Positions 12,438-39,647 of a stretch of 41,012 nt of DNA are shown here, piece after piece. Made by a program: the position numbers and the translations under genes. The notes under the pieces were generated by a model that saw nothing but the letters and a program-made list of their open reading frames with translations, ran no database searches and was not told the origin of the DNA. The first letter of the stretch is position 1; every line of letters starts with the position of its first letter. The DNA is from Candidatus Omnitrophota bacterium (lineage in GTDB: Bacteria > Omnitrophota > Gorgyraeia > Gygaellales > Profunditerraquicolaceae). The DNA lies in NCBI GenBank assembly GCA_041308885.1, contig JBFZAQ010000096.1, forward strand, positions 1 to 41,012. The letters run 5' to 3'.

Positions 12438-12438
12438 C

Positions 12439-17657: not shown

Positions 17658-17689
17658 AAGTGTGTAAGTGTAAAGTGTAAAGTTTAGAA
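17658..17689. repeat. Tandem heptamers (agtgtaa) filling the cpaF-proS gap
   Basis: Sequence aagtgtgtaagtgtaaagtgtaaagtttagaa. Confidence 0.7.
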
Positions 17690-18955
17690 TTAAGATTCGT
17701 GTCTAAAGATGTCCTCGTTGAAAATAATACCCAACTTCTTAAATTTGGCTAGACACAGCGGTTTAATACCGGTAGACTTCCAAACTCCCAAGACTTTGCC
17801 GGTAGCGGAATCAACTCCTTCCACATCGTAAAAAAATATGTCTTCGACCATAGCCTGGCCGTCCTGCAGGCCGTTAATCTGGGCAATATGTGTGATTTTA
17901 CGCGTCCCATCCGACATCTGCCGCTGTTGGACGATCAAATTAACGCTGGCGGCGATCTGCCGATGCAGCGCTTCCAGGCCTAAAGGAATACCGCTGGTCA
18001 AAACCATGGTTTCTAAACGATAAATTACATCGCGCGGAGAATCCGCGTGGATAACTGCCAGAGATCCGCTATGGCCGGAACACATCGCCTGCAACATATC
18101 CAGCGCTTCTGCCCCGCGGATTTCTCCTAGAATTATTCTATCCGGCCTCATGCGCAACGTATTTTTAAACAAATCCCGGATATTAATTTCACCTTTGCCT
18201 TCGATATTAGCCTGGCGGCCCTCTAGGCGCACCACATGTTCCTGATTTAAACGCAACTCCGCGGTATCTTCAATGGTTATAATACGCTCGTTATCCGGGA
18301 TATACGCCGACAAAACATTAAGCGTAGTCGTCTTACCCGCGCCGGTCGCGCCGGAAAAAATAATATTCAGATGCGCCTTAATCGCTGCCACCAAAAAATC
18401 TGCCATCCGCGCATCCAGCGAACCAAGAGCAACCAAATCTTCTGCCGATTTAATGGCTTTTAAGAATTTCCTTATAGTGACTACCGTACCATCCAGGGCC
18501 ACCGGAGATAAAATAATATTAACCCGTGATCCGTCTTTAAGGGAAACGTCGGTATAAGGACTTAATTCATCGACCCGACGCCTAGTCGGCGAAAGTATTT
18601 TATAAATCAACGACATCAACTGTTGCTCGCTATCAAAGGTTATTGCGACGCGCTCGGTCTTCCCGCCCCTCTCCACATAAACATTCTTAGGGCCATTAAT
18701 CATTATTTCGGTAACCTGAGCATCTTGAAGGAGATTCTCGATCGGGCCAAATCCCACAAATTCATCCACTAACTCACGGATAATTTTCTCTTTATCTTCA
18801 TCGCTGGCTGCCGTCTTCTCGCGCACAATGATATCCTGCAACAGATAAGCGATAGTCTGACGTAGATCATTCTGATCCAATGTTTCCTGGGAAAAAAGCG
18901 CGCGATATTCCGCAATAAGGCGGCGCCGGATTTTATCCTTAAAGGTTTTTATCAT
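17690..18955 (-). CDS. cpaF: CpaF/TadA-family type II/IV secretion ATPase
   Basis: Walker A GATGAGKTTTLN, RMRPDRIILGEIRG, and a CpaF-like N-terminal domain. Confidence 0.85.
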   Translation of the reverse strand: MIKTFKDKIRRRLIAEYRALFSQETLDQNDLRQTIAYLLQDIIVREKTAASDEDKEKIIRELVDEFVGFGPIENLLQDAQVTEIMINGPKNVYVERGGKTERVAITFDSEQQLMSLIYKILSPTRRRVDELSPYTDVSLKDGSRVNIILSPVALDGTVVTIRKFLKAIKSAEDLVALGSLDARMADFLVAAIKAHLNIIFSGATGAGKTTTLNVLSAYIPDNERIITIEDTAELRLNQEHVVRLEGRQANIEGKGEINIRDLFKNTLRMRPDRIILGEIRGAEALDMLQAMCSGHSGSLAVIHADSPRDVIYRLETMVLTSGIPLGLEALHRQIAASVNLIVQQRQMSDGTRKITHIAQINGLQDGQAMVEDIFFYDVEGVDSATGKVLGVWKSTGIKPLCLAKFKKLGIIFNEDIFRHES

Positions 18956-20037
18956 TGCAATTCTTTTTTAAGCTCCGCGATCAACGCCTCGACGCACCGA
19001 GAATCGGCAACCTTGCGCACAGGCTTACCGTGTTTAAATAAAAGGCCTTCCCCTTTACCGAAAGCAATACCGATATCCGCCTCTTTAGCCTCACCCGGGC
19101 CGTTAACCACGCACCCCATAACCGCTACTTTCAACGGCTTACGCTGCAGGGAAAAAGGGAAATTCCGCGTTAACGCCTGATCAAGCTGCTTGACTATCCG
19201 CACTAAATCTACTTCACACCTTCCGCACGTCGGACAACTGATAATCTGCGGGCCGAATTGCCGCACACCAGCCGCTTCCAGAATAGCCCGCGCAGCCCTA
19301 ATTTCTTCCTTAGGTTTATCAGTAAGGGATACGCGTATTGTATCACCAATTCCGTCAATGAGCAAACTTCCAATAGCCGCGCTGGAAGCAATGGCGCCCT
19401 GAAACGAGAGGCCGGTTGCGGTAACCCCCAGATGCAAGGGATAATCGGATACCCTGGCTATCTGGCGATAGGCCATAACCGTATCTCTAGTATTGGAGGC
19501 CTTAAGCGATATCACAATGTCGCTAAATTTATTCTTCTCCAGCGCCCGCACATACTTTAAAGCGCTTTCCACCATTTGTTGAGCCTGAGGCTTGCGGCTG
19601 TTGCCCCCCGGCATTCCTCGCCCGGATAACGATCCGGAATTCACCCCTACCCTTATAGGTATTCCGGCCTTACGGGAAGCCGCGGCAACATCCCTTATTT
19701 GCTCAGATTTATAAATATTCCCCGGGTTTAACCGAATCTTATCTACCCCGCTGTCTATGGCCGCCAATGCCAAACGCCAATCAAAATGGATATCAGCCAC
19801 GAGAGGAACACCGATATTTTGTTTAATCCGCTTAAGCGCTGCCGCATCCCGGGTATCCTTGACGGCCACGCGCACAATCTCACAGCCGGCCTGCTCCAAC
19901 TCCTTAATCTGACGTACCACCGCCTCCACATCCGAGGTTTTGACTTTAGCCATGGACTGGATGGCGACCGGATTATTCCCTCCGATTTTGACCTTGCCGA
20001 TCCTAATAACCTTGGTTTTATGGCGGCTTATCGACAT
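18952..20037 (-). CDS. ispG: 4-hydroxy-3-methylbut-2-en-1-yl diphosphate synthase
   Basis: KIGGNNPVAIQSM and a C-terminal CPTCGRC Fe-S motif. The start is re-called to ATG 20037, because the track start at 20094 is TTG inside the repeat. Confidence 0.9.
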   Translation of the reverse strand: MSISRHKTKVIRIGKVKIGGNNPVAIQSMAKVKTSDVEAVVRQIKELEQAGCEIVRVAVKDTRDAAALKRIKQNIGVPLVADIHFDWRLALAAIDSGVDKIRLNPGNIYKSEQIRDVAAASRKAGIPIRVGVNSGSLSGRGMPGGNSRKPQAQQMVESALKYVRALEKNKFSDIVISLKASNTRDTVMAYRQIARVSDYPLHLGVTATGLSFQGAIASSAAIGSLLIDGIGDTIRVSLTDKPKEEIRAARAILEAAGVRQFGPQIISCPTCGRCEVDLVRIVKQLDQALTRNFPFSLQRKPLKVAVMGCVVNGPGEAKEADIGIAFGKGEGLLFKHGKPVRKVADSRCVEALIAELKKELQ

Positions 20038-20044
20038 AGAATAT

Positions 20045-20164
20045 AAAATCCCAATGGCCAAATCCCAAACTCCAATGAATGTCCAATGAATCAATTACCA
20101 ACGCGCTATTGGAAATTGGTTATTGGTAATTCATTGGGGCTTGGTAATTGGAATTTGGTCATTT
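20045..20164. repeat. NNNCCAA-heptamer palindromic element, copy 3
   Basis: Sequence aaaatcccaatggccaaatcccaaactccaatgaat...attcattggggcttggtaattggaatttggtcattt. It contains the rseP stop codon. Confidence 0.9.
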
Positions 20165-21238
20165 AAATAGTTTCGCTATCTTATCCCCAAAGAACCTTAC
20201 CACATCATTATACGTCACTACAACCGCCAGCATTATCATTATCGTCATGCCTACGCGGGACACATAAGCTTCGGCTCTCTGGCTTAAGCGCTTCCCGGTG
20301 ACTTTCTCTATCCCCAGCAATACCAGATGCCCGCCGTCCAATATCGGGAGCGGCAAAACATTAAACAAGGCCAAGCTGACACTCAACACCGCGATAAGAT
20401 GCACCACCGCGATAAAACCCATATGCGCGGCTTCCGAGGTAATATAAAAAATGCCTAACGGGCCGGTAACCGACTCTCTAACCGACATCTTACCCGTGAT
20501 CATACGCCAGAGGGCTTTATAAGTCAGCACGGTTAAGTCTAAGGTTTTTTTAGCAGCCAATATACCGGACTGAACAAAGCTATGTTTAACCGTAATCAGC
20601 TCCTCATGCGGCGTTATGCCTAGTAAACCAACGCTCCTTTTTTGTCCCAGCACATCAGCAAAGTCTTTGGCTTTAATTGCGGTCCTGATGCTTAATTCCC
20701 GGCTCCCGCGAACTATCCGTAACTCTGCCGTTGTCGGGGCCTGCTTAGCTTGAATGGTCTCCTGTAACTCATCCCAATTATGCACCCGCTTTCCATCCAC
20801 GGACATAATCGTATCCCCGGCCTGCAAGCCCGCTTCCTGAGCTCCGTACCCCTCAATTACACTGCCGACCTTTGACGTAAGCGTGGGGTAACCAACAAGA
20901 AAAATAAACCAAAAGAATACAAAACCCAGCGCGTAATTCAATAACGGCCCGCAGATAATCACTTTGGCCCGCGCTCCCGGTGATTTAGCTAAATATTCAT
21001 CCGAGGCTCCTTTACTCTCCTCAATTGTATCCCCGGCTAATTTAACGTATCCGCCAAGAGGAATAGCGCTGATACTATATTCGGTCTGGCCGCGCTTTTT
21101 CTTGGCTAATATCGGGCCAAAACCAAGCGAGAATTTTTCCACCCGGATACCGACTCGCCGGGCCATATAATAGTGGCCGAATTCATGAACGATGATTAGA
21201 ACACCTAATACTAATAAGAAAATAAAAAGTGATAGCAT
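20159..21238 (-). CDS. rseP: RIP zinc metalloprotease RseP (site-2 protease)
   Basis: HEFGHY motif, one PDZ domain, C-terminal LDGG motif, GGAG RBS. Confidence 0.9.
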   Translation of the reverse strand: MLSLFIFLLVLGVLIIVHEFGHYYMARRVGIRVEKFSLGFGPILAKKKRGQTEYSISAIPLGGYVKLAGDTIEESKGASDEYLAKSPGARAKVIICGPLLNYALGFVFFWFIFLVGYPTLTSKVGSVIEGYGAQEAGLQAGDTIMSVDGKRVHNWDELQETIQAKQAPTTAELRIVRGSRELSIRTAIKAKDFADVLGQKRSVGLLGITPHEELITVKHSFVQSGILAAKKTLDLTVLTYKALWRMITGKMSVRESVTGPLGIFYITSEAAHMGFIAVVHLIAVLSVSLALFNVLPLPILDGGHLVLLGIEKVTGKRLSQRAEAYVSRVGMTIMIMLAVVVTYNDVVRFFGDKIAKLFK

Positions 21239-21267
21239 ATTATTCTCCGTCGCCGTAAGTTAACTGT

Positions 21268-21327
21268 CCAATGACCAAATCCCAATTGGAAATTGGTTAT
21301 TGGGATTTCATTGGGATTTGGTCATTT
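21268..21327. repeat. NNNCCAA-heptamer palindromic element, copy 4 (short)
   Basis: Sequence ccaatgaccaaatcccaattggaaattggttattgggatttcattgggatttggtcattt. It contains the dxr stop codon. Confidence 0.9.
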
Positions 21328-22461
21328 ATCAATAATCTCTCTTGCCCGCTCCCTGGCCCAGGAATCCACAACCATAATCTTTCTCACATTCAAAACGCGC
21401 TCCGGTTTATGCCCCCGCATGACTTTTTCTACCACAGCCGGTATGCGCATAAATGCCAGCTTGCCGGCCAAGAACTCTTGCACGCATACATCGTTGGCGC
21501 CGTTCAGGACCGCCGGCAGACTACCTCCGATATTAATCGCCTCGTAAGCTAAACCCAAACAAGGAAATTTAGCCATATCCGGCTTATCAAAGGTTAAAGC
21601 CCCCAACTTGGAAAAATCCACTTGCGCAACATTAGTAGGCAGGCGCCTGGGGAAACTAAGGGCGTATTGAATCGGTACGCGCATATCCGTGGCCGAAAGC
21701 TGGGCTAAAATCACCCCGTCAACAAACTCGACCATAGAATGAATAATTGCTTCCGGATGAATGACCACGCTGATCACCGACGGCCTAACGGCGAATAAAT
21801 GCACGGCCTCGATCACCTCGAGGCCTTTATTCATAAGAGTCGCCGAATCTACGGTGATTTTCCGGCCCATCCGCCAGCGCGGGTGTGCCAAGACGTCCTG
21901 CGATGTTATCTTACTAAAACGCGACCTGGGCACAGAATGCAGCGGGCCACCGGACGCCGTAAGAAAAATCTTCTTTAAGGCGCCTCCGGAGCCATTGGCC
22001 TTAAGACATTGCCAGATCGCCGATTGTTCGCTGTCGATGGGGATAATCCCGACTTTCTTGGCAGCGCAGCGGCGCATAATAATGTCCCCGGCCATGACCA
22101 GCGCTTCCTTGTTCGCCAACAATACCTGCTTACCGGCGTCAATCGCCGCCAATAAAGGCGCTAACGCTGCGGATCCGCTTATAGCCACAAGCACACAATC
22201 CACATCGGGCCGCCGCGCGATCTCCTCCAACCCGGGCTCTCCGGCCACCACCTTAAGCCGCCGCCCTGCCGGCAACACCCCTACCGATTCTCCGACGCAG
22301 ATGACCCGCGCCGAAAATTCCCGGGCCTGGCGCAATAAAACCTCGGTCCGCAAATTCGCGCTCAGCGCGGTTACCGAAAATTCCCTCGGGAAACGCCTGA
22401 TAACATCTAAGGCATTCTGGCCTATTGATCCGGTGGAACCAAGAAGCGCTATGCGTTTCAT
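21322..22461 (-). CDS. dxr: 1-deoxy-D-xylulose 5-phosphate reductoisomerase
   Basis: LGSTGSIGQNALDV NADPH motif, Dxr-like over the full length. Confidence 0.93.
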   Translation of the reverse strand: MKRIALLGSTGSIGQNALDVIRRFPREFSVTALSANLRTEVLLRQAREFSARVICVGESVGVLPAGRRLKVVAGEPGLEEIARRPDVDCVLVAISGSAALAPLLAAIDAGKQVLLANKEALVMAGDIIMRRCAAKKVGIIPIDSEQSAIWQCLKANGSGGALKKIFLTASGGPLHSVPRSRFSKITSQDVLAHPRWRMGRKITVDSATLMNKGLEVIEAVHLFAVRPSVISVVIHPEAIIHSMVEFVDGVILAQLSATDMRVPIQYALSFPRRLPTNVAQVDFSKLGALTFDKPDMAKFPCLGLAYEAINIGGSLPAVLNGANDVCVQEFLAGKLAFMRIPAVVEKVMRGHKPERVLNVRKIMVVDSWARERAREIIDK

Positions 22462-22462
22462 T

Positions 22463-23257
22463 CTACCTAACTATAACGCTAAGATAAAAATAATAAACCG
22501 GAGCGGTGAATAATATGCTGTCGATGAGGTCAAGGATCCCGCCCATTCCCGGTACAAGATTACCGGAATCTTTCACCTGACAATCCCTCTTCATCAACGA
22601 CTCCGACAAATCACCCAACTGGCCTAATATTCCGCCGGTTAGCCCGATCGCCGCCAGATGCAAAAAAGAAAAATGGACCAACGGTTTAACCGCCAAGGCG
22701 GCCACAACGCTAAAGATGAGCCCGCCGACAGCGCCCTCGACTGATTTCTTAGGGCTGATCCGCGGCATAAGCGGGCGTTTACCGAAGCGGCTGCCGATCA
22801 AATACGCCCCGATATCCCCCATTTTGGTAATCAGGAGTATGCCGGCCAGGAGAAACACGCCGTTAGGCAGATTGCGAATCTTAATTACAAAACTAAAAAA
22901 CCAGGAAACATAAAGTATGCCAAAGAGGGTTGTCGAAATACCGACGATAACTCCCTGATTCTCCCGCCGGCGAAACTGCATAATGATCAAAACCAAAAGG
23001 GTCAAGACCATAAAAAATAATTCCCAGGTCTTCGTCGGCTCGAAACGAAAAAGAATTGAGGCCGGGATCACCACCCCGATAGCGATACCGACATATTTAT
23101 AGATCCGGATCTCTTTCTTCTCCAGCATAGTAAAGAACTCATACAGCCCGCCGATAACAAAGAACAAGACTGCCGCGGCAAACACCCAATCAAAGAATAA
23201 AGCGCAGATAATCCCGGTAATAATAATAATCGAGCTGCTAATCCGCTGTTTCAGCAT
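22463..23257 (-). CDS. cdsA: Phosphatidate cytidylyltransferase
   Basis: Polytopic membrane protein with the SPKKSVEG and KRD signature, in uppS-cdsA-dxr synteny. Confidence 0.88.
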   Translation of the reverse strand: MLKQRISSSIIIITGIICALFFDWVFAAAVLFFVIGGLYEFFTMLEKKEIRIYKYVGIAIGVVIPASILFRFEPTKTWELFFMVLTLLVLIIMQFRRRENQGVIVGISTTLFGILYVSWFFSFVIKIRNLPNGVFLLAGILLITKMGDIGAYLIGSRFGKRPLMPRISPKKSVEGAVGGLIFSVVAALAVKPLVHFSFLHLAAIGLTGGILGQLGDLSESLMKRDCQVKDSGNLVPGMGGILDLIDSILFTAPVYYFYLSVIVR

Positions 23258-23972
23258 GGTCGCTTATTTGGCCGTACCTGCGCTCGCGCGCCTGGTAGGC
23301 TTTAATAGCCTGGGCCAAGTCTTCGGTTTTGAATTCCGGCCAGTATTTTTTCAGAAAGTAGAATTCCGCGTAGGAAAGCTGCCAAAGCAGATAATTGCTT
23401 AAACGTTGCTCGCCGCTGGTGCGGATGAGGATATCCGGGTCGGGCAAACCCCGCGTATATAAATACCGGCTCATGCTTTGCTCATCCAGCGAGTTAAGCT
23501 GCGCGCGGTTAGCTTGCACATCCCGGGCAAAATCTTTAGCTGCGTCGATAATCTCCTGGCGGCCGCCATAATTAATCGCTAGCACCAAGGTTAAACCGGT
23601 ATTGGCCGCGGTTTTAGCTTGGGCCGCCTGCATTTTCGTTACTAAACGCTTAGGAATCGGGTCATCCCTGCCGATGATTAACAACCGAATATTACTTTCG
23701 TGCAATTGCCTTACTTCATAGTCCAGGAAATGATCCAGCGCCTTCATCAGCATCGCTATTTCTGTGCGCGGACGCTGCCAATTCTCATGCGAAAAGGCAA
23801 AAAGAGTAAGAACCTTAACTCCCATTTGTCCGGCAGCCCGGACAATTTCCCTGACCCGCTGAATACCTTCTCTGTGGCCAACCGCCCGGGGCAAATGGCG
23901 CTCCTTGGCCCAGCGGCCGTTGCCGTCCATGATGATGGCGATGTGCTGAGGAATATCTCGAGTAAAATTCAT
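23238..23972 (-). CDS. uppS: Ditrans,polycis-undecaprenyl-diphosphate synthase
   Basis: HIAIIMDGNGRWA and RTSGEQRLSNYLLWQ motifs. Confidence 0.93.
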   Translation of the reverse strand: MNFTRDIPQHIAIIMDGNGRWAKERHLPRAVGHREGIQRVREIVRAAGQMGVKVLTLFAFSHENWQRPRTEIAMLMKALDHFLDYEVRQLHESNIRLLIIGRDDPIPKRLVTKMQAAQAKTAANTGLTLVLAINYGGRQEIIDAAKDFARDVQANRAQLNSLDEQSMSRYLYTRGLPDPDILIRTSGEQRLSNYLLWQLSYAEFYFLKKYWPEFKTEDLAQAIKAYQARERRYGQISDHAETAD

Positions 23973-24043
23973 GTTAGGTTATAGGTTTTAGGTTGTGGGT
24001 TTTAGGTGCTGGCTAAAACCTAACACCTAACACCTAAAACCTA
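23973..24043. repeat. Locus-specific heptamer-built hairpin filling the whole GH57-stop to uppS-start gap
   Basis: Left arm ggtttta/ggttgtg/ggtttta heptamers, loop about gtgctgg, right arm ctaaaac/ctaacac/ctaacac/ctaaaac. Confidence 0.85.
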
Positions 24044-28080: not shown

Positions 28081-29500
<1,420 letters not shown>

Positions 29501-29504
29501 TTTT

Positions 29505-30740: not shown

Positions 30741-30757
30741 AAAACACTCCTCTGTAT

Positions 30758-30869
30758 GAATGACCAATGACCAAATCCCAAATCCCAATGAATTACCAAT
30801 AACCAAATCCCAATTAGACATTGGTCATTGGGGTTTCATTGGGATTTGGTCATTGGGGTTTGGTCATTT
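30758..30869. repeat. NNNCCAA-heptamer palindromic element, copy 5
   Basis: Sequence gaatgaccaatgaccaaatcccaaatcccaatgaat...ttcattgggatttggtcattggggtttggtcattt. It contains the stop codon of the 596-aa gene. Confidence 0.9.
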
Positions 30870-32654
30870 CTTAAGTATCTTCTCCAGCTCCTGCTTCGCC
30901 GGAGCTCCTTTAGTGGAAAATATCTCTTGGTTATCCACCAAGTAGCTCGGGCCAAACATAATCTCCAGTTCCTTATTCAGGCGGATATTTTCGCGCAATA
31001 ACTTCTTGCCTTCTTCACCTTGCGCGCAGGACTTGATCTTAAGCGTATCCGCTGCGCCCTTTAGACAATCATCCCACCAGGAAGAGCTTAAGTTGCCGGA
31101 CCGGCAAACCAGATAATCCCAGAAGGTCTCGGGATAATATTTCTCGATGCACACGCCTTTTAAATATTCTTCTACCTCTACTGATCCCTTGGCCGCGTCA
31201 AAACCAGCGTCTTTCTCAACGGCTAAAAAATGTACCTCGGGAGAAAAAGAACGAACGACTTCCAGCGTCTTATTCGCGCCGGCATCGAAGAGGCTTACAA
31301 ATATATCTAAAGCACCCGCCTTCCTACCGCGTTTGAGAAAGAAAGAAACCCCGCTCACCTGAGGCTTAACCAGATAAACATCCCCTACAAGATCGACCCT
31401 ATCTTGAAGCATTTCAAAGTTCTTCTGCCGCTCTATGTCTTTATCAAAAACATAGGCCGGCAGACGGCTTAAGCCTAATTTGGCAATCATCTCCTGAGCG
31501 CCGGGATCCGGATAATACAAAGTAGACACTGTTAATCCCGGAAATGGCTTCTTTAAGAAATCAACAAATTGCTGCGGGCTGCAAACCTTACACGCCTTAG
31601 GGGTAATCACCGTCAAGCCCACTTTAACCGGCTCGCTAAAAACGCAGCTGGCTTTTAACGTTGCGGGATCCTGGCAAGTGCCAACCAGCCCTTCTTGCTT
31701 ACAATTATCGTCGGAAAAACAGCGCGGCAAAAATTCGACGATCTCCCGGTCATCGGCAATATCCGCAGACAAACGGAGTTGTTCGGCTTGGTGAGAAATA
31801 ATCTTTCTATCTTGGATATTTAACTTCAGAACTCCGAGCTTTCTCCCCTGCCATGACGGCCACACAATGATCGTCTGCCCGATTTTAGAAACGATTTCTC
31901 CTTGCGGATGCGCAATACCGGCGATAAGCAGATCGATCCCCTTGACTTGGTCTAACAGTTTCGCATCTTCGGCATCACTCTGGTGGCTCAAAAGTATAAT
32001 CAAATCAACTTTCTTGCCCCTAAGCTCAGCTACAGTTTTGGCCGCCGCGGACTTAGGATCAATGATCGGTAACCCACCGGATTTCGGCGCGGCACTAAGC
32101 GGGGTAAGGCCGATAATGCCGATTTTTAACCCGGAAACCTCTTTAAGTACATACGGCAAAAAAGGCTTTGCTTGAATATTATAGGAAAGAAAGGGGATCT
32201 TGGTCTTGGCCGCGTTATCTAATAGATATTCTTTGCCGAAATTAAACTCATCGTCTCCAACGGCAACCGCATCATAGCCCATGACCTCCATGCCCTTCAA
32301 CTGCAAATTAGTGCGCTGCATATCCAACTGCACATTCTGGGTATACTGATCCAAAAGGCCGCCGGCAAAGTAACTTCCGGAGTCAACCAGAATAACTCCC
32401 GGCGAGCTTTTGCGCAGCTGCTTGATCAGCGTGGCCCGGCGGGCCAATCCCCCGTCGCGCTCAATCGGGCAGTTGCATTGATAAAGCATCGCGTGGGTCT
32501 GACCGGTATACAAAATAGTCAGTTCTTCAGCCTGAACATAAGACGCAGGACGCAGGACGCAGGACGCAATAAGAAGGATTAGAAACGCGCAACTTTTTCC
32601 TCCTAAGCTTGCGTCTTGCGTCTTGCGTCTTGCGTCTATAATTTTCGCGCTCAT
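30864..32654 (-). CDS. Secreted fusion: 5-prime-nucleotidase/metallophosphatase-like N-terminal domain with substituted metal ligands, plus Cys-rich thioredoxin/DsbA-like C-terminal domains
   Basis: ILYTGQTHA, VDSGSYFAG, GDDEFNFG, LSHQS and AGIAH align to the ND-HG, DAGD, GNHEFD, SH and GGHSH motifs of UshA-type enzymes, but most ligands are replaced. The C-terminus has CKVC (CxxC) and a DsbA-like end. The ATG overlaps the serA TGA (ATGA). Confidence 0.6.
   Translation of the reverse strand: MSAKIIDARRKTQDASLGGKSCAFLILLIASCVLRPASYVQAEELTILYTGQTHAMLYQCNCPIERDGGLARRATLIKQLRKSSPGVILVDSGSYFAGGLLDQYTQNVQLDMQRTNLQLKGMEVMGYDAVAVGDDEFNFGKEYLLDNAAKTKIPFLSYNIQAKPFLPYVLKEVSGLKIGIIGLTPLSAAPKSGGLPIIDPKSAAAKTVAELRGKKVDLIILLSHQSDAEDAKLLDQVKGIDLLIAGIAHPQGEIVSKIGQTIIVWPSWQGRKLGVLKLNIQDRKIISHQAEQLRLSADIADDREIVEFLPRCFSDDNCKQEGLVGTCQDPATLKASCVFSEPVKVGLTVITPKACKVCSPQQFVDFLKKPFPGLTVSTLYYPDPGAQEMIAKLGLSRLPAYVFDKDIERQKNFEMLQDRVDLVGDVYLVKPQVSGVSFFLKRGRKAGALDIFVSLFDAGANKTLEVVRSFSPEVHFLAVEKDAGFDAAKGSVEVEEYLKGVCIEKYYPETFWDYLVCRSGNLSSSWWDDCLKGAADTLKIKSCAQGEEGKKLLRENIRLNKELEIMFGPSYLVDNQEIFSTKGAPAKQELEKILKK
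32541..32637. repeat. Intragenic heptamer palindrome inside the signal-peptide codons of the 596-aa gene
   Basis: agacgcaggacgcaggacgcaggacgcaa (32541-32569) against ttgcgtcttgcgtcttgcgtcttgcgtct (32609-32637). The mismatches are G:T wobble positions. Confidence 0.85.
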
Positions 32655-34237
32655 GTCCTAATCCCCTTCGCCGTGAGAATATTCTCTAATTTTTTAATCT
32701 GCTCCAGCAGCGCTCCCGATACCGGGCTATCCACGTTTAAAACGCTGATCGCCCGTCCGCCGGGCACATCGCGGCCAAAGGTCATTGCCGCGATATTAAT
32801 ATTGTTCCGGCCTAAAAACGTCCCTAAACTGCCGATAAGCCCCGGCTTATCCCAATTCTGGATAAAAATCATATCACCGGCCGGCGATAATTCCAGATAG
32901 GAATCATCAATCTTGACAATACGCGGCTGCTTGCTGGAAGAGAGCGTACCGCAGATACGCTTGGTTTCCTTATCGGTAACTAACTCCAGCTGAATAAGGG
33001 TGACAAACTCCTCTTCTTTAGATGATTTTGACTCCTGGATCTTAATCCCTCTCTCTTTAGTCAGAGAAACGGCGTTGATAAAATTCACCGTTTCCTTTAA
33101 GATCGGCGATAAAATTCCTTTGGCCAGCGCCATCGTCAACGGGCTTAAATCATATTTGATAATGTCGCCGCCGTAGGTTATGCGCATCTCTTGGAATCTG
33201 CCCTCCACCAATTGGCTGGCGAACAAACCCATCTTCTCGGCTAATTTTATATACGGATCAAGGACTTTGCAAACTTCGGCTTCCAAACACGGATAATTGG
33301 CGGCATTGCGTATACCTTTACCTAAGAGCGCGTCGCGGACAATTTCGGCTACTTCAATAGCTACATTTACCTGCGCCTCTTCGGTTGATGCTCCCAGATG
33401 CGGGGTAAGAATAACATTATCCAACTTCAATAACTCGCTCTCCGAAGACAACGGCTCTTTTTCAAAGACATCCAGTGCAGCCGCGGCCACGGTACCGTCT
33501 TTAACCGCGTTGATCAAGGCCTGCTCATCAATGATACCACCCCGCGCGCAGTTAATGATCCGGACTCCTTTTTTCATCAAGGCAAATTCTTTAGTAGAAA
33601 TAATGTGCTTGGTTTCCTCGGTTAGCGGGGTATGCACGGTAATATAATCGGCCCGCGCGAAGATATCTTTCAATTCTCCGACTTCAACACCGAGGCTTTC
33701 GGCGACCTGACGGTTAAGAAACGGGTCAAAGGCCAAGACCTTCATCCCGAAAGATAAGGCCCGCTTGGCCACTTCTGAACCGATACGGCCAAATCCGACG
33801 ATACCGAGGGTCTTAGTATACAATTCCACCCCCATGAATTTCGACCGCTTCCATTCGCCTTTCTTCATCGAGGCGTTGGCCTGCGGAATGGTCCGTGACA
33901 AGGCTAAGATCATGCTCAGAGTATGCTCGGCCGTAGATATAGTATTGCCCGCCGGGGTATTCATAACGATAACGCCCTTTTGAGTGGCCGCTTCCAAATC
34001 CACATTATCCAGCCCCACCCCGGCCCGGCCGACCACTTTAAGTTTCGCCGCTGCCCCAAGGATATCTTTAGTAACCTTGGTGGCGCTGCGCACAATCAAA
34101 GCGTCGTAATCCTTAATAATCTCTTTAAGGCCTTCGGGCTTAAGGTCGGTTTTTACATCAATCTGAAACGCCCCGGCTGACTCCAGAATCGAAATTGCCT
34201 CCGGAGCTAATTGATCACTGATAAGTATTTTGTGCAT
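32651..34237 (-). CDS. serA: D-3-phosphoglycerate dehydrogenase (long form with ACT domain)
   Basis: GFGRIGSEVA NAD motif, catalytic R/E/H region, 528 aa with C-terminal ASB/ACT-like region. AAGGAG RBS. Confidence 0.9.
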   Translation of the reverse strand: MHKILISDQLAPEAISILESAGAFQIDVKTDLKPEGLKEIIKDYDALIVRSATKVTKDILGAAAKLKVVGRAGVGLDNVDLEAATQKGVIVMNTPAGNTISTAEHTLSMILALSRTIPQANASMKKGEWKRSKFMGVELYTKTLGIVGFGRIGSEVAKRALSFGMKVLAFDPFLNRQVAESLGVEVGELKDIFARADYITVHTPLTEETKHIISTKEFALMKKGVRIINCARGGIIDEQALINAVKDGTVAAAALDVFEKEPLSSESELLKLDNVILTPHLGASTEEAQVNVAIEVAEIVRDALLGKGIRNAANYPCLEAEVCKVLDPYIKLAEKMGLFASQLVEGRFQEMRITYGGDIIKYDLSPLTMALAKGILSPILKETVNFINAVSLTKERGIKIQESKSSKEEEFVTLIQLELVTDKETKRICGTLSSSKQPRIVKIDDSYLELSPAGDMIFIQNWDKPGLIGSLGTFLGRNNINIAAMTFGRDVPGGRAISVLNVDSPVSGALLEQIKKLENILTAKGIRT

Positions 34238-34281
34238 GTTAACTCTCCTTATAGAATAACTGCTCAGCCGTTAAAAACGTT

Positions 34282-34420
34282 TATCAGCATATCAGATGAT
34301 CAGTGGATAGATCATCAGGAAATTAGAATATCAGTTTTAAGAGAATACTCCCCATTGACTGTCCTGATATTCCGGTCTACTGATATCCTGCCTACTGATA
34401 CTCTGATAATCTGATATGCG
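34282..34420. repeat. Locus-specific hairpin built from ATCAG-containing repeats and their complement
   Basis: Left arm tatcagcatatcagatgatcagtggatagatcatcagg...atatcag. Right arm cctgatattccggtctactgatatcctgcctactgatactctgataatctgata. Confidence 0.8.
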
Positions 34421-34435
34421 TATTTAAACTAATCT

Positions 34436-35572
34436 TTATTTCAAAAACACCGCCTGCGCCGCGCCAACGCCTACGCCCAGTTGGAATTTATAACCCATTT
34501 GAGCCAATACTTTCTCCAGGCAGGAGATTCCGATAATGATATCAAACTCGGCGATATAGCCCATGTGGGCGATACGGAAAATTTTCCCCTTCATCTCATC
34601 TTGCCCGCCGGCAATAGTTACGCCATAGGTATCCCGCATGACCTTAACCAGCTTCTCGCCGTCGACACCCGTAGGCACCTTGACCGCAGTCACCACATCC
34701 GAACCGGCGTCAGGCGCAAACAACTCCAATCCCAGCGCTTTCATCGCCGCGCGGGTCGCATCCGCCATTTTATGGTGGCGGCTGAATACGGCTTCCAGGC
34801 CATCCTGCTTCATTATATCCAAAGCTTCATTTAAGGCAATAACCAAAGATATCGCCGGAGTAAACGGAGTATCGGTTTTATCCGCGGCTTTCTTGGCTTT
34901 GCGTAAATCGAAATAATAACGCGGGCTCTTGGCAACTTCTATTAATCTCCAGGCTTTAGCACTTAGCGAAATAAATCCCAGGCCCGGCGGCAGCATCAAG
35001 CCTTTTTGCGACCCCGACACAACGCAATCGCAACTCCAGGCATCGGTTTTTAAATCAATGGCGCCTAAGCCGCTGATAGCATCAACTACCAAAACAGCGG
35101 CGGTACTCTTAACGACTTTACCCAGGGCCTCAATATCATTAACCACGCCAGTCGAGGTTTCGCAAAGCGTGGTAAATACCGCTTTGATCTTAGGATTGGC
35201 TTTCAGGCGCTGCTCAATTTCCTGAGGTAAAACTGCCTGTCCCCAAACCACGTCCACAACCTCAGTAGCGATGCCGTAGCTTTTACAGATTTCCGTCCAG
35301 CGCTCGCCAAATTTACCGCCCTGGATACACAAAGCGGTATCGCCGGCAGATAACAAATTAGCTACCGCCGCTTCCATAGCCCCGGTTCCTGAAGACGTCA
35401 GGATAAAAACATCGCCCGCGGTCTGAAAAATTGATTTTAACCCTGCAACTGCTTTCTTTAACTCTTCCTGGAACTGCGGTGTACGATGATGGATAATCGG
35501 CCGGGCCATCGCCTCGCAGACTTGCGGGGGCAGCGGAGTCGGCCCTGGGGTCAATAGATAATTCTTACGCAT
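34436..35572 (-). CDS. Class V aminotransferase (AGXT/serine-pyruvate type); probable phosphoserine aminotransferase given its position next to serA
   Basis: LLTPGPTPLP N-terminus and SGSQKGL PLP-lysine motif. The start is re-called to ATG 35572 with GGAGG 5 nt upstream; the track start is TTG. Confidence 0.75.
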   Translation of the reverse strand: MRKNYLLTPGPTPLPPQVCEAMARPIIHHRTPQFQEELKKAVAGLKSIFQTAGDVFILTSSGTGAMEAAVANLLSAGDTALCIQGGKFGERWTEICKSYGIATEVVDVVWGQAVLPQEIEQRLKANPKIKAVFTTLCETSTGVVNDIEALGKVVKSTAAVLVVDAISGLGAIDLKTDAWSCDCVVSGSQKGLMLPPGLGFISLSAKAWRLIEVAKSPRYYFDLRKAKKAADKTDTPFTPAISLVIALNEALDIMKQDGLEAVFSRHHKMADATRAAMKALGLELFAPDAGSDVVTAVKVPTGVDGEKLVKVMRDTYGVTIAGGQDEMKGKIFRIAHMGYIAEFDIIIGISCLEKVLAQMGYKFQLGVGVGAAQAVFLK

Positions 35573-35594
35573 GAGTTCCTCCAATTATCGTCTT

Positions 35595-35673
35595 GTCTAT
35601 GGTCTATGGTCGATAGTCTATAGTCCAAATCTTTTACCATTGACCATTGACTATAGACTATAGACTATAGACC
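35595..35673. repeat. Locus-specific hairpin built from GTCTATG/GTCTATA heptamers and their complement
   Basis: gtctatggtctatggtcgatagtctatagtc (35595-35625) against gactatagactatagactatagacc (35649-35673). Confidence 0.85.
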
Positions 35674-35676
35674 AGT

Positions 35677-36282
35677 CTATTTTTTCTTCCCAATAATAAC
35701 CTCATCAATAATTCCATACTCTTTCGCTTCCTGGCCGGACATGAAGTAATCGCGGTCGGTGTCTTTCTGCACTTTTTCCAACGTTTGGCCGGTATGGTTA
35801 GCCAAAATCTGATTTAACCTGTCCCGCAGGCTCAAAATTTCCTTGGCATGGCGCGAGATATCCTCGGCCGCACCCTGAACACCGCCCCAGGGCTGATGGA
35901 TCATTACCCGCGAATTCGGTAAAGTGAAACGCTTGCCCTTAGTACCCGCGGCTAATAATAAAGCCCCCATGCTGGCTGCTTGCCCGACGCAATAGGTGGC
36001 CACATCCGGCTTGACAAACTGGATCGTATCATAAATCGCCAGCCCCGCGGTAACCGACCCACCAGGTGAATTAACATATATGCTGATATCCTTGTTCACA
36101 TCTTCCATCTGCAAGAATAACATCTGGGCGATGACCAGATTCGCCACGTAGTCATCGATCGGGGTACCGATAAATACTATCCGGTCCTTAAGCAGGCGCG
36201 AATAAATATCATAGGCCCGCTCATATCCGCGGCTGGTCTGTTCGATAACCATAGGCACTAGGGTCTGATTCATGATAGCCAT
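35677..36282 (-). CDS. clpP: ATP-dependent Clp protease proteolytic subunit
   Basis: [14 protein letters not shown] and MIHQP motifs. The start is re-called to ATG 36282 (GGAGG RBS); the track's first 19 codons translate the repeat. Confidence 0.93.
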
Positions 36283-36302
36283 ATACACCTCCGTATTAAA
36301 TT

Positions 36303-36405
36303 TCCAATTACCAATGACCAAATCCCAATGAATACCCAATTGCCAAATCCCAATTGGGTATTGGTTATTGGTAATTCATTGGAATTTGGGGCTTGGTCAT
36401 TGGTA
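36303..36405. repeat. NNNCCAA-heptamer palindromic element, copy 6
   Basis: Sequence tccaattaccaatgaccaaatcccaatgaatacccaattgcc...ggtaattcattggaatttggggcttggtcattggta. Confidence 0.9.
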
Positions 36406-36412
36406 TTTTTGC

Positions 36413-37291
36413 TTATACTACGCTCCAATCCGCTTCCCTCAACAACAGCTCGATCACTCTCTGGGTCATATGGTCATCCAGAGGAATTTGCTCTTTCTTG
36501 GCAATTTCGGCTAAGACCAGATAAGTTTTAACCTGCCGGCGCGCCTGAGGCTCCAATTCTTTAACGATATCTTTTTCCTTGCTGTCGATTTCTTCGCGGG
36601 GCATCCCCTTCATCGCTAAATCAACTTTCGCGCGCCTGAGTTGATCATCCAGTTGACGCTGCACAAACGCCTGCGGCAATTTAATCTCCAGGTCTTCGGT
36701 CACGGCTGTAATAACTTCATGCTCGATCCTCTGGCGCTGCAGATTATCCTTTTGCAGCATGAGTTGGCGCTTAACCGATTCCTGGAGTTCCTTTAAATTC
36801 GGATATCCGACGCTCTTAGCCAAAGCATCGTCGATGTTTTCAACTTTACGCATCTCTTTAAAGCTATCGATTGAGCGCTTGACTTCATCATCGGTAACCT
36901 CAATCTGCTTAAATCCGACCTTGAGGCCTTTATAATTCTTTAACTTTATCTGCGGACTGACTTCCACCGTAGCCTTAAAAGACAAATTTGACCGGTCAAG
37001 CTTAACCTCGCTTATGCTCGGCAACTCGATAACCTCCAACTGCTCAGCTTTGACCACTGCATCGTAAATCTCCGGAATAAGCTCCTTTAAGACTTGCTCG
37101 GTAGCAGCTGCGGAGAAATTCTTTTCAATAATATCCCGCGGGGCTGCCCCCGGCCGAAAACCCGGGACCTTGGCGTTTTTGGCTATCTCTTTAAAGACCG
37201 TTTCGAACTTATTCTTGACTACATCGCCTTCAGCCTGAATATCGATTTCCCTTTTCGTAGCATCTATTTTTTTGACTTCAACCTTTTTCAT
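36413..37291 (-). CDS. tig: Trigger factor lacking the PPIase domain and the distal C-terminal arm
   Basis: GFRPGAAP ribosome-binding signature and N domain, joined directly to C-domain-like sequence. It is 292 aa against about 430 aa in canonical trigger factors. Confidence 0.8.
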   Translation of the reverse strand: MKKVEVKKIDATKREIDIQAEGDVVKNKFETVFKEIAKNAKVPGFRPGAAPRDIIEKNFSAAATEQVLKELIPEIYDAVVKAEQLEVIELPSISEVKLDRSNLSFKATVEVSPQIKLKNYKGLKVGFKQIEVTDDEVKRSIDSFKEMRKVENIDDALAKSVGYPNLKELQESVKRQLMLQKDNLQRQRIEHEVITAVTEDLEIKLPQAFVQRQLDDQLRRAKVDLAMKGMPREEIDSKEKDIVKELEPQARRQVKTYLVLAEIAKKEQIPLDDHMTQRVIELLLREADWSVV

Positions 37292-37308
37292 TTATATCTC
37301 ACCCTTCT

Positions 37309-37343
37309 CCATTTAACCATTTAACCAATCACCATTTAACCAT
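37309..37343. repeat. Tandem CCATTTAA octamers in the lptB-tig gap
   Basis: Sequence ccatttaaccatttaaccaatcaccatttaaccat. Confidence 0.7.
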
Positions 37344-38066
37344 CTACATCCTAAATTTCTCACCCAAATAAATCTGGCGGGCCTTGGGGTTATCGATCAA
37401 ATCCTGCGCCGATCCGGAAATAAGAATAGAACCTTGCGCGATCAAATAGGCCCTATCAGTTATCGAAAGGGTCTCCCGGACATTGTGATCAGTCAAAAGG
37501 ATCCCTAAACCCTTGGCCTTTAGTTCTTTAATAATCTCCTGCGCCTCGTTGACCACGATCGGATCAATTCCCGAAAACGGCTCATCCAGTAATATGAACG
37601 AGGGATTCGTGACTAAGGCCCGAGTTATTTCTAACCGTCTCCTTTCTCCTCCCGATAAAGTATAGGCCTTACTCTTGGCCAGATGGCTGATATTCAATTC
37701 TTTAAGCAGTTCGACTAAGCGCTGCCGGCGCGCGGCCCGGCTGATCGGTAGAGTCTCCAATATTGCCAGGATATTTTCTTCCACGGTCAACTTCCTGAAG
37801 ATCGAGGACTCCTGAGCCAAATAACCGATGCCATAACGGGCCCGCTGGTGAATCGCCAAATTAGTAATATCGTGATTATCGAATATTATCCTGCCCCGAT
37901 TAGGCGGGATAACTCCGACGATCATATAAAAGGTAGTCGTCTTGCCGGCGCCGTTAGGCCCCAGCAGGCCGACAATCTCTCCGCGCTTAACCAGCATATT
38001 CACATTCTTGACGACCGGTTTACTATCGTAAGATTTAGAAAGATCCTTAATCTCCAGCAAGTGCAT
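37344..38066 (-). CDS. lptB: LPS export ABC transporter ATP-binding protein
   Basis: Walker A GPNGAGKTTTF, LSGGERRR signature, 240 aa, downstream of lptC/A. Confidence 0.9.
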   Translation of the reverse strand: MHLLEIKDLSKSYDSKPVVKNVNMLVKRGEIVGLLGPNGAGKTTTFYMIVGVIPPNRGRIIFDNHDITNLAIHQRARYGIGYLAQESSIFRKLTVEENILAILETLPISRAARRQRLVELLKELNISHLAKSKAYTLSGGERRRLEITRALVTNPSFILLDEPFSGIDPIVVNEAQEIIKELKAKGLGILLTDHNVRETLSITDRAYLIAQGSILISGSAQDLIDNPKARQIYLGEKFRM

Positions 38067-39102
38067 TACTGCTCATCTCCTCGGTTGAATAAATTACCAG
38101 GCGCGGTTTCCCGACTAAAGTAATCTTTTTGCTCATTCCCGAATAGACCGCTTCCTGACTGTAGGAAATATTCTCCCCTTGCACGATCTTGACATTCCCG
38201 CGGGCGATGATCTTATCAATCTTTGACCCCATGCCGGCAACACCCTCGGCCCCGGCAGCGTCTTTTTCTTCCTGCTCCTTATCTTGACTCTGCTTATTAT
38301 TGAGGAAATAAACCAGGAGCGTATCGCTATAGATCTGCGCGTCATCGCGGTCAACTTTTACGTTATTGTTAAAAGTCGCTATCCCCGCATCATAATCGAC
38401 CTGCAACGGCCCGTCGCAAGTAATGGTAATTTTAGTAGCCTTATTCTCAGGCGCGCCTTCAGCGTTTTTCTCCTGAGGAAAAATCTGGACGTTAACCTCT
38501 TTTTCCAAATCGACTTTTTTGAGATTCGGCTCGCCGGATGCCCCGAGTGCCGCCGCCATCATATTATCGCGGGCGATATTAACCTGATCAACGGTAGTTA
38601 CGGTCTGATTTTTTCTGTCCCAATCTAAAGAATCGGTGGTTAGTGTGGCCCCCTGCGAAGTCGTGATCACCACGTTATCCTGCAGATGGACTTTACCGTC
38701 GGTTTTGTTAAAATCCCCCATATCCGCATTCAGTTGGATATCCTCTTTTTCTCCGTAAAGATTCCCGGTAACATCTTTAAGCTTAACCGTATCGCTAATG
38801 ATATCGGCTGATTTCCCGGATATATCCCAGGCTTTCTTCCCCTTATCCCCATACCCGGCCAAAGAAAAGTCACTGATCTGCTGATCAGCTCCGGGAGCGG
38901 CTTCGCTGGCTGCTAATGCCGCAGAATACTTAACGCTTAAAAGCAAGAATAAAAAAACAATTGCCCTGCCGACCCGCAATGAAAAACTGTCATTGCGAGG
39001 CACGTAGTGCCGAAGCAATCTCAACGCCAACCTAGATTGCTTCGTCGCAAAAAAAACTCCTCGCAATGATATATTATTTTTCATATAAGGCCAGCGCTTC
39101 AT
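38047..39102 (-). CDS. Fused LptC-like and LptA-like (OstA fold) LPS transport protein; start uncertain
   Basis: There are two successive beta-jellyroll-like halves (DFSLAGY...VTTVDQVNI and ITITCDGPLQVDY...ITLVGKPRLV) at the position occupied by separate lptC and lptA genes in the E. coli kdsD-kdsC-lptC-lptA-lptB locus. Codons about 12-43 are a palindromic repeat. Confidence 0.65.
   Translation of the reverse strand: MKRWPYMKNNISLRGVFFATKQSRLALRLLRHYVPRNDSFSLRVGRAIVFLFLLLSVKYSAALAASEAAPGADQQISDFSLAGYGDKGKKAWDISGKSADIISDTVKLKDVTGNLYGEKEDIQLNADMGDFNKTDGKVHLQDNVVITTSQGATLTTDSLDWDRKNQTVTTVDQVNIARDNMMAAALGASGEPNLKKVDLEKEVNVQIFPQEKNAEGAPENKATKITITCDGPLQVDYDAGIATFNNNVKVDRDDAQIYSDTLLVYFLNNKQSQDKEQEEKDAAGAEGVAGMGSKIDKIIARGNVKIVQGENISYSQEAVYSGMSKKITLVGKPRLVIYSTEEMSSNALAGD
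38975..39069. repeat. Nested CATTGCGAGG / AGCAATCT palindromic element inside the lptC/A 5-prime coding region
   Basis: tcattgcgagg (38990-39000) pairs with cctcgcaatga (39059-39069). cgaagcaatct (39011-39021) pairs with agattgcttcg (39034-39044). A third copy, cgcaatga (38975-38982), can pair instead with 38990-38997. Confidence 0.85.
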
Positions 39103-39601
39103 CCCACAGTCCTTTAGCTTTTAAAATCAATTCGGCCGCCTCGCGCACCGCGCCTCTGCCGCCGTGACGAATAGTGATATAAAAGGCGGCTTTCTTAATG
39201 TCCTGGGCAGCATTAAATACCGCTATCGGAAGCCCGACCCGTTTCATCACTCCTAAATCAACCAGATCGTCACCGACAAAACAGATCTCCTCGCAGCCCA
39301 GGCCATATTCTTTAATCACTTTATCCAAGACGATTGTCTTGGGAGTGATATCGGCAAAAACTCTTTCCACCCGCATATCTTTAGCTCGCGGAAGAATTGA
39401 TTTTGACCCCTTAGCCGTAACTAAGATAGTCTTAATCCCCATCTTATTCAACAGATACACCCCTAAGCCGTCATGCACGTCAAAAAACTTGGCGTCGCGG
39501 CCTTTAGAATCGTAGATAATCCGCCCATCAGTCAATACCCCGTCGACATCAAGCATGAGCAACTTGATCTTTCGGGCTCTATCTTTTAATTCGGGTTCCA
39601 T
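39074..39601 (-). CDS. kdsC: 3-deoxy-D-manno-octulosonate 8-phosphate phosphatase
   Basis: HAD motif LLMLDVDGVLTDG, 175 aa, between kdsD and lptC. Confidence 0.88.
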   Translation of the reverse strand: MEPELKDRARKIKLLMLDVDGVLTDGRIIYDSKGRDAKFFDVHDGLGVYLLNKMGIKTILVTAKGSKSILPRAKDMRVERVFADITPKTIVLDKVIKEYGLGCEEICFVGDDLVDLGVMKRVGLPIAVFNAAQDIKKAAFYITIRHGGRGAVREAAELILKAKGLWDEALALYEK

Positions 39602-39621
39602 GGCAAGTGTGTAGGTGGAAA

Positions 39622-39647
39622 GTTATGAGTTATGAGTTATGAGTTTA
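39622..39647. repeat. Tandem GTTATGA heptamers in the kdsD-kdsC gap
   Basis: Sequence gttatgagttatgagttatgagtttac. Confidence 0.75.

Follow-up and report, generated by a model that had tools for sequence, protein, structure and literature searches.

The stretch of DNA analysed here (the window) is contig C96 of a metagenome-assembled genome (MAG) of Candidatus Omnitrophota bacterium (assembly GCA_041308885.1, contig JBFZAQ010000096.1) and is 41,012 nucleotides (nt) long. The MAG, labelled G000, comprises 1.69 Mb in 233 contigs, is 87% complete and has a G+C content of 48%. Cn denotes the contigs of G000, other G numbers denote other genomes, and L numbers denote loci in relatives, which represent a sample and not an exhaustive survey. 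Gene calls in G000 are crude and based on open reading frames (ORFs), with 91% of the genome coding. The window (1-41012) contains roughly 38 long ORFs, all on the minus strand, and its ORFs are of housekeeping type: uppS, a GH57 branching enzyme, purA, serA, clpP, trigger factor and a type IV pilus ATPase. The gaps between them probably hold several related families of small palindromic elements, with arms of about 4-5 tandem heptamers, which are related to elements bearing a gene of the family PF05635. The families are dispersed through the genome, some have sharp ends and shared signatures, and their architecture is common with that of elements carrying a gene in the loop.

Tandem arrays were located with Tandem Repeats Finder (TRF) and by direct reading of the sequence. 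All eight arrays listed by a preceding sequence-only reading of the window are present at the places it gave. That reading had assigned to them a common period of seven nucleotides and, often, a mirroring into hairpins, and both hold for part of the set. The period is 7 at six of the eight sites (17662-17683, 23974-24043, 29360-29502, 32542-32637, 35595-35674 and 39621-39645) and 8 or 8/15 at 34364-34416 and 37309-37343. Five sites are mirrored into strong hairpins, and three are single unfolded arms (17658-17689, 37309-37343 and 39622-39647). RNA folds were computed on the transcribed strand for the ranges 23973-24043, 29357-29504, 32538-32640, 34278-34422 and 35592-35676, each against 200 shuffles; the five hairpins fold at -30 to -53 kcal/mol with z scores of -5.3 to -7.8, and 0 of 200 shuffles folded as well. 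Repeats of this construction had been placed in most intergenic gaps, which is overstated for period 7: arrays of period 7 or 14 lie in 10 of the 22 window gaps of at least 25 nt, and a tandem repeat of any kind in 16 of the 22.

Array counts in the whole genome were compared with five dinucleotide-preserving shuffles. G000 holds 332 period-7 arrays against 27-43 in the shuffles (about 9-fold), 212 period-8 arrays against about 42, and 76 period-14 arrays against about 7. Period-7 density per base is 18 times higher between ORFs than inside them, as far as the crude ORF calls allow, and the autocorrelation of intergenic DNA has maxima at lags 7, 14 and 21. An inverted partner lies within 150 nt of 129 of the 332 arrays, compared with 10 of 332 under random placement. 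Because the counts exceed those of the shuffles and are joined by the intergenic bias, the autocorrelation and the inverted partners, the excess of period-7 and mirrored repeats is real. The genome-wide scan proposed along with the sequence-only reading, in which a lack of excess over the null was to speak against a shared construction, thus returned an excess of both kinds. The arrays agree with the heptanucleotide class of simple sequence repeats (SSRs) and short tandemly repeated repetitive (STRR) sequences, being 7-nt tandem repeats that are more frequent than chance and mainly intergenic. They collapse to 103 canonical units, of which few dominate, and their copy number has its maximum at 4.0-4.5 units (78/332) with no geometric decay. 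Several contigs of G000 end in or beside heptamer arrays (e.g. C47:94-124, C18:4683-4702 and C1:2433-2515), so that the repeats probably fragment the assembly.

Genome-wide, period-7 arrays occur in 24% of the co-directional and 24% of the convergent gaps, and divergent gaps are poor in them (2/44 versus 143/594, Fisher p = 0.0013). This distribution, the position between a stop codon and a ribosome-binding site and the strong folds would suit RNA structures selected by the host as 3'-exonuclease barriers, attenuators or translational couplers on polycistronic mRNA, for which repeats were a handy way of building stems; the repeat regions of Xanthomonas are transcribed (PMC4692102). Such an origin is nevertheless unlikely, since orthologous gaps in related genera hold different families or none, single arms that do not fold make up three of the eight listed loci, copies also lie inside ORFs, and no consistent U-tract follows the stems. 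In the window, the hairpin at 23973-24043 occupies the whole gap from the GH57 stop codon to the uppS start; the orthologous gap downstream of GH57 in G010 contains a hairpin of different units (AAATTCT/ATTTAGG), and this hairpin is itself dispersed in G010 and G012. Nor do the hairpins have the makeup of intrinsic terminators, the stems being long and A+T-rich and the flanks reading GTTT-stem-AAAC or holding at most 3-4 T. Domestication of some copies is possible and compatible with the element families preferred here.

The motifs had been described as locus-specific. Each of them in fact recurs elsewhere in G000 as a dispersed family: GTGTAAT at 28 loci, GACGCA[AGT] at 29, GTC[TAG]AT[AG] (the GTCTATA group) at 21, TAGGT[TG][TA] (equal to GGTTTTA) at 19 and AACTCA[CT] at 13. 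A plain DNA search found arms near-identical to 23982-24043 on seven other contigs. The unit plan is a conserved 5-base core with one or two wobble positions, and some families consist of 8- or 10-mers. The proposal of a shared grammar is borne out in that about four tandem heptamers with 1-2 wobble positions, in mirrored arrangement, are found also in related Omnitrophota and in other phyla. The CCAA family literally contains TTGGTCA, which we take to be the STRR2 unit. A CCAA-family hairpin at C19:925-1121 has a 150-nt loop with a nested G+C-rich palindrome, an element within an element. Twelve copies of the GTGTAAT element can be aligned along about 140 nt. Their ends are sharp (TGTGTAATG ... 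CATTACACA), their flanks are unrelated, and they have in common the non-periodic features of an interruption (GCGGGTG), a spacer of 7 nt, an inner unit and GGAAAAA at the loop start. The element was found at full length and 72-79% identity in 7 of 81 genomes of the order (G000 and six others), which belong to three families. The single arm at 17658-17689 is probably akin to this family, GTGTAAA being a common unit variant inside GTGTAAT elements.

The shared non-periodic signatures and sharp ends of the GTGTAAT and CCAA families are explained only by common descent. Generation in situ, which the sequence-only reading preferred to descent from one mobile element, is therefore not supported as it was stated, given the dispersed families, the sharp ends and the gene-bearing counterparts described below; the descent is from several related elements, not one. 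In its pure form, generation in situ would consist of local slippage on a chance heptamer, set by a 7-nt polymerase footprint, and of mirroring by intramolecular template switching, with nothing moving. We give this little chance. Unlinked copies share sharp ends and non-periodic features (GCGGGTG, the 7-nt spacer and GGAAAAA; CCCAATGAAT[GT]ACCAAT), the same element type of about 140 nt recurs in seven genomes of three families, the copy number peaks at 4-4.5 units where a decay would be expected, and no reason is offered for the tight tie to one gene family. What speaks for it is variation in the arms. In the families looser than GTGTAAT, unit number, unit variants and loops are all variable, and pure arrays reach 9-11 units (C175, C110); one arm at C69 is far longer than its partner; wobble positions are uncompensated between arms; and heptamer number differs between Coxiella strains and between Xanthomonas species. 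The variable unit number, the arrays of up to 11 units and the expanded C69 arm show that slippage does act on the arms, as a secondary process. The other generator that had been suggested, a repeat-building enzyme, was not found: no reverse transcriptase is present, and the sole consistently linked protein is a small helical bundle of non-enzymatic appearance.

The starting lead to that protein was the purA locus of a relative (L013), where heptamer arms surround an insert of about 360 nt encoding a PF05635-type protein. All six PF05635 (23S_rRNA_IVP) genes of G000 are bracketed by tandem-repeat arms in inverted orientation, with a different unit in each case (Table 1), and among 655 short ORFs of G000 these six score highest for inverted flanks that are unexplained by two separate complete hairpins. 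Other genes in long loops (the N-terminal part of transketolase, prmC, fur and hisB) were discarded as ordinary genes between two complete hairpins or with their own operators. In 29 other genomes of the order, 27 of 29 PF05635 loci have inverted arms, compared with 0 of 54 shifted controls of the same geometry (Fisher 8e-20). A further set of ten genomes, labelled Nitrospirota, Binatia, delta-proteobacterial/Syntrophobacter (Desulfobacterota-like) or Verrucomicrobiia, was chosen for heptamer hairpins upstream of purA. All ten possess PF05635, in 2-16 copies each, and 23 of 30 genes have arms versus 1 of 53 controls. The pooled figures for a gene in the loop are 56/65 versus 1/107, across several phyla. 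The arms of 54 elements have a median length of 30.5 nt, or 4.4 units, and the best self-match lies at lag 7 in 80 of 108 arms compared with 3 of 52 control segments.

For four families of the window there are gene-bearing counterparts with the same non-periodic signatures. The C196 element and the CCAA hairpins of the window share CCCAATGAAT[GT]ACCAAT and ATTCATTGGGATTTGG. At G055:C26, a PF05635 gene of 125 amino acids (aa) stands exactly at the short-loop position of the gene-less GTGTAAT elements, bounded by ...GTGTAATG-TTTAAT-TGTGTAACGGAAAAATC and TTTTACATTACACATTACAC... In G087, the AATCCAA arms of L184 equal a gene-less hairpin upstream of purA in L056. The arm at 37309-37343 is similar to the arms CCAATTACCATTTAACCAA of L125, a gene-bearing element, and the AGTTATG unit of 39621-39645 agrees with that of the arms in the gene-bearing element that L013 has upstream of purA. 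Arm units also recur between genera: GTC[TAG]AT[AG] arms are common to five to six genera, one of them weaker, with proteins that are 64-77% identical, TAGCGTA and CTACTAT are each common to three, and GTGAACT to two. Protein pairs with at least 55% identity have an arm 6-mer Jaccard index of 0.089 versus 0.023 in other pairs (permutation p = 1e-4). On these sequence comparisons, protein clades track arm units, protein and unit being inherited together. The number of PF05635 copies has a median of 4.5 in hairpin-rich genomes versus 1 in sixteen genomes without hairpins near purA (Mann-Whitney U, p = 9e-5), and half of the copies in those sixteen genomes still bear heptamer arms. The hairpins of the window are thus most likely gene-less derivatives of elements like the intervening sequences (IVSs) of 23S rRNA that encode S23p.

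Gene-bearing elements recur at few gaps across genera, namely pgk-tpiA (L107, L122 and L124) and upstream of fmt (L104, L108, L109 and L115), and others lie beside tRNA genes (L101, L102, L113, L118 and L123). Those in the pgk-tpiA gap of different genera have unlike units (TAGCGTA versus a GAACT core).

Table 1. Repeat features of the window, with the arms of PF05635 genes and the in-frame hairpins on other contigs of G000
Feature	Position	Strand	Basis and remarks
CCAA-family hairpin, units AAATCCC/AATGACC, no loop gene	86..202		TRF and reading; aligns with arms of the C196 gene-bearing element
10-mer array AACCTCGATT, GTTAACC family	6284..6328		TRF; unit family also forms arms of the PF05635 gene C209:6487-6786
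CCAA-family hairpin, right arm truncated	12358..12440		TRF, reading and alignment
Single arm, about 3.3 GTGTAAA units, whole stop-to-start gap	17658..17689		TRF; no fold
CCAA-family hairpin	20046..20165		TRF, reading and alignment
Short CCAA-family hairpin	21265..21325		Reading and alignment
GGTTTTA/GGTGTTA hairpin, TAGGT core and 2 wobble positions	23973..24043		TRF; fold -30.3 kcal/mol, z -5.3
Full-length GTGTAAT element, about 140 nt	29357..29504		Fold -51.9 kcal/mol, z -6.9
CCAA-family hairpin	30752..30875		TRF, reading and alignment
GACGCA[AG] palindrome, translated, mismatch every 7th base	32542..32637	-	Fold -52.3 kcal/mol, z -7.8
ATCAG/CTGAT hairpin, irregular units of about 8 nt	34282..34420		TRF period 8/15; fold -52.6 kcal/mol, z -6.5
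GTC[TAG]AT[AG] hairpin	35595..35674		Fold -35.4 kcal/mol, z -7.3; unit is that of the PF05635 arms at C132
CCAA-family hairpin	36295..36400		TRF, reading and alignment
Single arm, about 4.5 CCATTTAA units, period 8	37309..37343		TRF; no significant fold
Single arm, 3.6 AGTTATG units, AACTCAT family	39621..39645		TRF; no fold
CCAA-family hairpin	40630..40745		TRF, reading and alignment
Arms of PF05635 gene	C69		GCAAGGG/ACAAGT; one arm far longer than partner
Arms of PF05635 gene	C105		8-mer GTGTCAGA
Arms of PF05635 gene (second on C105)	C105		ACAAATG
Arms of PF05635 gene	C132		GTCTATA
Arms of PF05635 gene	C196		CCAA family
Arms of PF05635 gene	C209		10-mer GTTAACCnnG
In-frame hairpins	C13:8006-8088, 9320-9399
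In-frame hairpins	C177:290-357, 2543-2610
In-frame hairpin	C107:7925-7986
In-frame hairpin	C77:569-643

Several observations weigh against a derivation of the hairpins from gene-bearing elements. PF05635 is present in 10 of the 16 genomes where no hairpins lie near purA, and arrays are few in the 40-kb samples of several relatives that have PF05635, so the gene is not sufficient for proliferation. In the 40-kb samples, raw period-7 density does not differ with the presence of PF05635 (p = 0.22); strong arrays alone do differ (23 versus 3, p = 0.008), a result driven by two genomes, and the correlation is weak. G000, at its 87% completeness, holds no gene-bearing copy for GGTTTTA, GACGCAA, AGTTATG or the ATCAG 8-mer; the gene link of GACGCAA and AGTTATG is a resemblance of units to elements elsewhere, and GGTTTTA and ATCAG are without any. 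The 12 aligned GTGTAAT copies show no clear target-site duplication. Arms are often non-complementary at wobble positions, which is as compatible with separate slippage of the two arms as with recognition by a protein. Finally, the gene could instead home into the loops of pre-existing hairpins.

The loop proteins have about 120 codons and are of the S23p type (PF05635; TIGR02436, 'four helix bundle protein'); the two scanned in full both pass TIGR02436. Among solved structures, the pentameric XCC0516 of Xanthomonas campestris (PDB 2GSC, E = 9e-23) comes closest. Homopentameric four-helix-bundle proteins of this kind are relatives of Avd, the accessory protein of diversity-generating retroelements (DGRs). 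Against the equivalog model for DGR Avd, a single protein matched, at 26 bits compared with a cut-off of 80 bits. An origin of the repeats from DGRs or a reverse transcriptase was rejected because the genome contains no RVT_1 domain, and a defence role for the PF05635 proteins was set aside after PADLOC gave no match.

Many-copy intergenic palindromes are also produced by repetitive extragenic palindromic (REP) sequences and their hairpin-forming doublets (REPINs), which are mobilised in trans by a Y1 (HUH) transposase of the REP-associated tyrosine transposase (RAYT) type. G000 encodes a protein with a Y1_Tnp domain, as do 18 of 21 genomes of the family. That the repeats are REP- or REPIN-like elements of this kind is very improbable all the same: the Y1 gene of G000 (C116:971-2179) has none of the repeats in its flanks, whereas a RAYT is marked out by having its own REPs on either side, so that a RAYT/REPIN relation is unsupported; the arms are tandem heptamer arrays and not REPs of about 20 nt with a conserved 5' tetranucleotide; and the gene flanked by the arms is PF05635. 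The Y1 protein itself has 402 aa, with an N-terminal IS200-like Y1 domain, a predicted membrane segment and a C-terminal domain, and several relatives have comparable open frames of about 400 aa. Like REP/REPIN-RAYT systems and miniature transposable elements with inverted repeats (MITEs), the elements described here are short, many-copy intergenic palindromes with a gene flanked by inverted repeat copies. They differ in that the arms are tandem arrays and that no target duplications and no terminal inverted repeats matching an insertion sequence (IS) were seen. Sharp ends are present, and the one 'autonomous' form that was found encodes PF05635 and no transposase.

RNase III domains were not detected in the family: neither PF14622 (0 of 31 genomes) nor PF00636 (0 of 21) gave a match, also in genomes with a completeness of 90% or more, and 8 of 14 control genomes responded. 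For a family of bacteria, a lack of RNase III would be out of the ordinary. With no such domain detectable, excision by RNase III, as for the IVSs of 23S rRNA, was dropped as a mechanism in this lineage.

The palindrome at 32542-32637 had been described as embedded in coding sequence, and it is truly coding, the frame being open throughout. It forms the N-terminal signal peptide region of an exported metallophosphatase/5'-nucleotidase encoded by the ORF at 30864-32654 on the minus strand. The ATG at 32654 is the only in-frame start that retains both the signal peptide and the conserved motif ITILYTG; later in-frame starts are found only at codons 48 and 56 and would delete the signal peptide and cut ITILYTG. 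Two further candidate starts, AGGAGG-N6-TTG in the hairpin loop and an ATG past the hairpin, were rejected as out of frame. The palindrome is translated as MSAKIIDARRKTQDAS...FLILLIASCVLRPASYVQA, followed by EE, and this product is plausibly the signal peptide. Within the N-terminus (32513-32654), the purine-rich arm encodes the basic n-region and the complementary arm encodes part of the hydrophobic and cleavage region. The homologues are metallophosphatases/5'-nucleotidases of Omnitrophota, all with N-terminal signal peptides of variable length, some of which are repetitive (FTFYFLLFTFYFLL). Heptamer hairpins also lie inside very long open frames of up to 3,909 codons, with the frame intact (Table 1); on C13 and C177 an identical hairpin with identical flanks occurs twice each, as if within a duplicated protein module. 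Rickettsia palindromic elements (RPEs) are palindromic repeats inserted in frame in protein-coding genes and are not built of heptamers. The palindrome at 32542-32637 is like them in being in frame, and unlike them in consisting of heptamers and in supplying an N-terminal signal peptide.

The trigger factor homologue of the window (36413-37291, minus strand) has only 292 aa, with matches to Trigger_N and Trigger_C and no match to a peptidyl-prolyl isomerase (PPIase) domain between them. Exact-protein look-ups for clpP, uppS and purA gave no match in other assemblies, and an Rfam scan of the window gave no match, rRNA included.

STRR heptamers reportedly were described from heterocystous cyanobacteria by Mazel et al. 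in 1990. The arrays in G000 resemble STRR sequences and heptanucleotide SSRs in being intergenic tandem heptamers with several unit types per genome; they differ from STRR sequences in that they belong to Omnitrophota, are mostly mirrored with arms of about 4.4 units and form defined dispersed elements, the STRR sequences having no described link to a protein gene. Heptanucleotides are over-represented among long SSRs (Mrazek et al. 2007, cited after PMC4679880 and PMC4692102), and polymerase slippage is the idea credited to these authors for the excess (PMC4679880). The GGGAATC repeats of Xanthomonas and the GGGGA[TC]T repeats of Nostoc, which like those of G000 have 7-nt units, form arrays in which four is the usual number of units (Rehm et al. 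2015, PMC4692102). The GGGAATC repeats form 70-75 convergent (inverted) pairs per genome, lie mainly in co-directional gaps, are rare in divergent ones and vary between close species (PMC4692102). Both were read there as G-quadruplex formers, unlike the units found here, which are not G-rich. In X. campestris pv. campestris (Xcc), repeat #15 (GGGAATCGGGAGTGGAGAATCGGGAATC, four GGGAATC units) is placed between XCC0517 and XCC0516, with an overlap onto the start of the latter (PMC4692102 supplement). XCC0516 is the crystallised pentameric S23p homologue; the array on its start is tabulated and left unremarked in that paper. From Geobacter metallireducens, elements in multiple copies were reported that consist of four or five heptanucleotides in tandem and are in some cases drawn as hairpins (Aklujkar et al. 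2009, PMC2700814). The elements in G000 resemble them in having 4-5 heptamers per arm and dozens of copies between and within genes; the Geobacter elements were proposed as binding sites for global regulators or regulatory RNAs, with no linked gene named (PMC2700814).

The 23S rRNA IVS of Coxiella burnetii is a stem-loop with an S23p ORF, before which stand tandem GACAGAT heptamers whose number differs between strains (PMC4990558). Gene-bearing relatives of the window elements resemble the S23p IVSs of Leptospira, Coxiella and Xanthomonas (PMC4990558) in having complementary termini, a long stem and a PF05635 ORF in the loop. Unlike IVSs, the copies in the window have no ORF and are linked through shared arm signatures; and, IVSs residing in helix 25 or 45 of 23S rRNA, the window copies and those gene-bearing copies whose flanks were read lie between or within protein or tRNA genes. 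IVSs are excised by RNase III, which is undetectable in this lineage. Full-text searches, the coverage of which was incomplete, found no literature linking heptamer repeats to the PF05635 family. The link of heptamer repeats to a gene in the loop appears to be undescribed, the repeats themselves being of a known kind (STRR and other heptanucleotide repeats).

The hairpins of the window may have arisen by loss of the loop gene, or they may spread as solo or miniature forms, a mode of spread that we infer. Slippage, together with exchange between arms, would then remodel the arms and produce the variable unit numbers and wobble positions. The elements would persist in co-directional operons, in the gaps from stop codon to ribosome-binding site, and now and then in frame at protein termini that tolerate them, presumably because little harm is done there. 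The absence of RNase III to cut long RNA stems may explain why such stems are tolerated within operon transcripts. Most speculatively, the pentameric protein might recognise its own arms through their 4-5 heptamers, with each subunit reading one unit, which would give rise to a shared grammar with family-specific 'words'; what suggests such binding is the agreement of five subunits with about 4.4 units and the tracking of arm units by protein clades. It is conceivable, and put forward only tentatively, that the STRR repeats, the GGGAATC repeats of Xanthomonas, the Geobacter elements, the hairpins of Omnitrophota and the S23p IVSs form one class, in which binding of the pentamer to its own arms would set the 7-nt period and the arms of about four units, and gene-less copies would be dependent in trans or decayed.

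As regards annotation, hairpins of this type can be the source of signal peptides and of in-frame inserts, and they can break the assemblies of small genomes. To our knowledge, no cause has been accepted for the heptamer excess, noted since 2007, or for the STRR repeats, noted since 1990. For the PF05635 family, we know of two crystal structures and of no function outside the Avd protein of DGRs. The link of heptamer repeats to a gene in the loop has parallels in published data on Coxiella and Xanthomonas that went unremarked there, and it ties together three puzzles, namely the heptamer excess, the function of S23p/PF05635 and the origin of the 23S rRNA IVSs. If the repeats are one class bound by the pentamer, this would explain the long-noted excess of heptamers in bacterial genomes and would give S23p a function.

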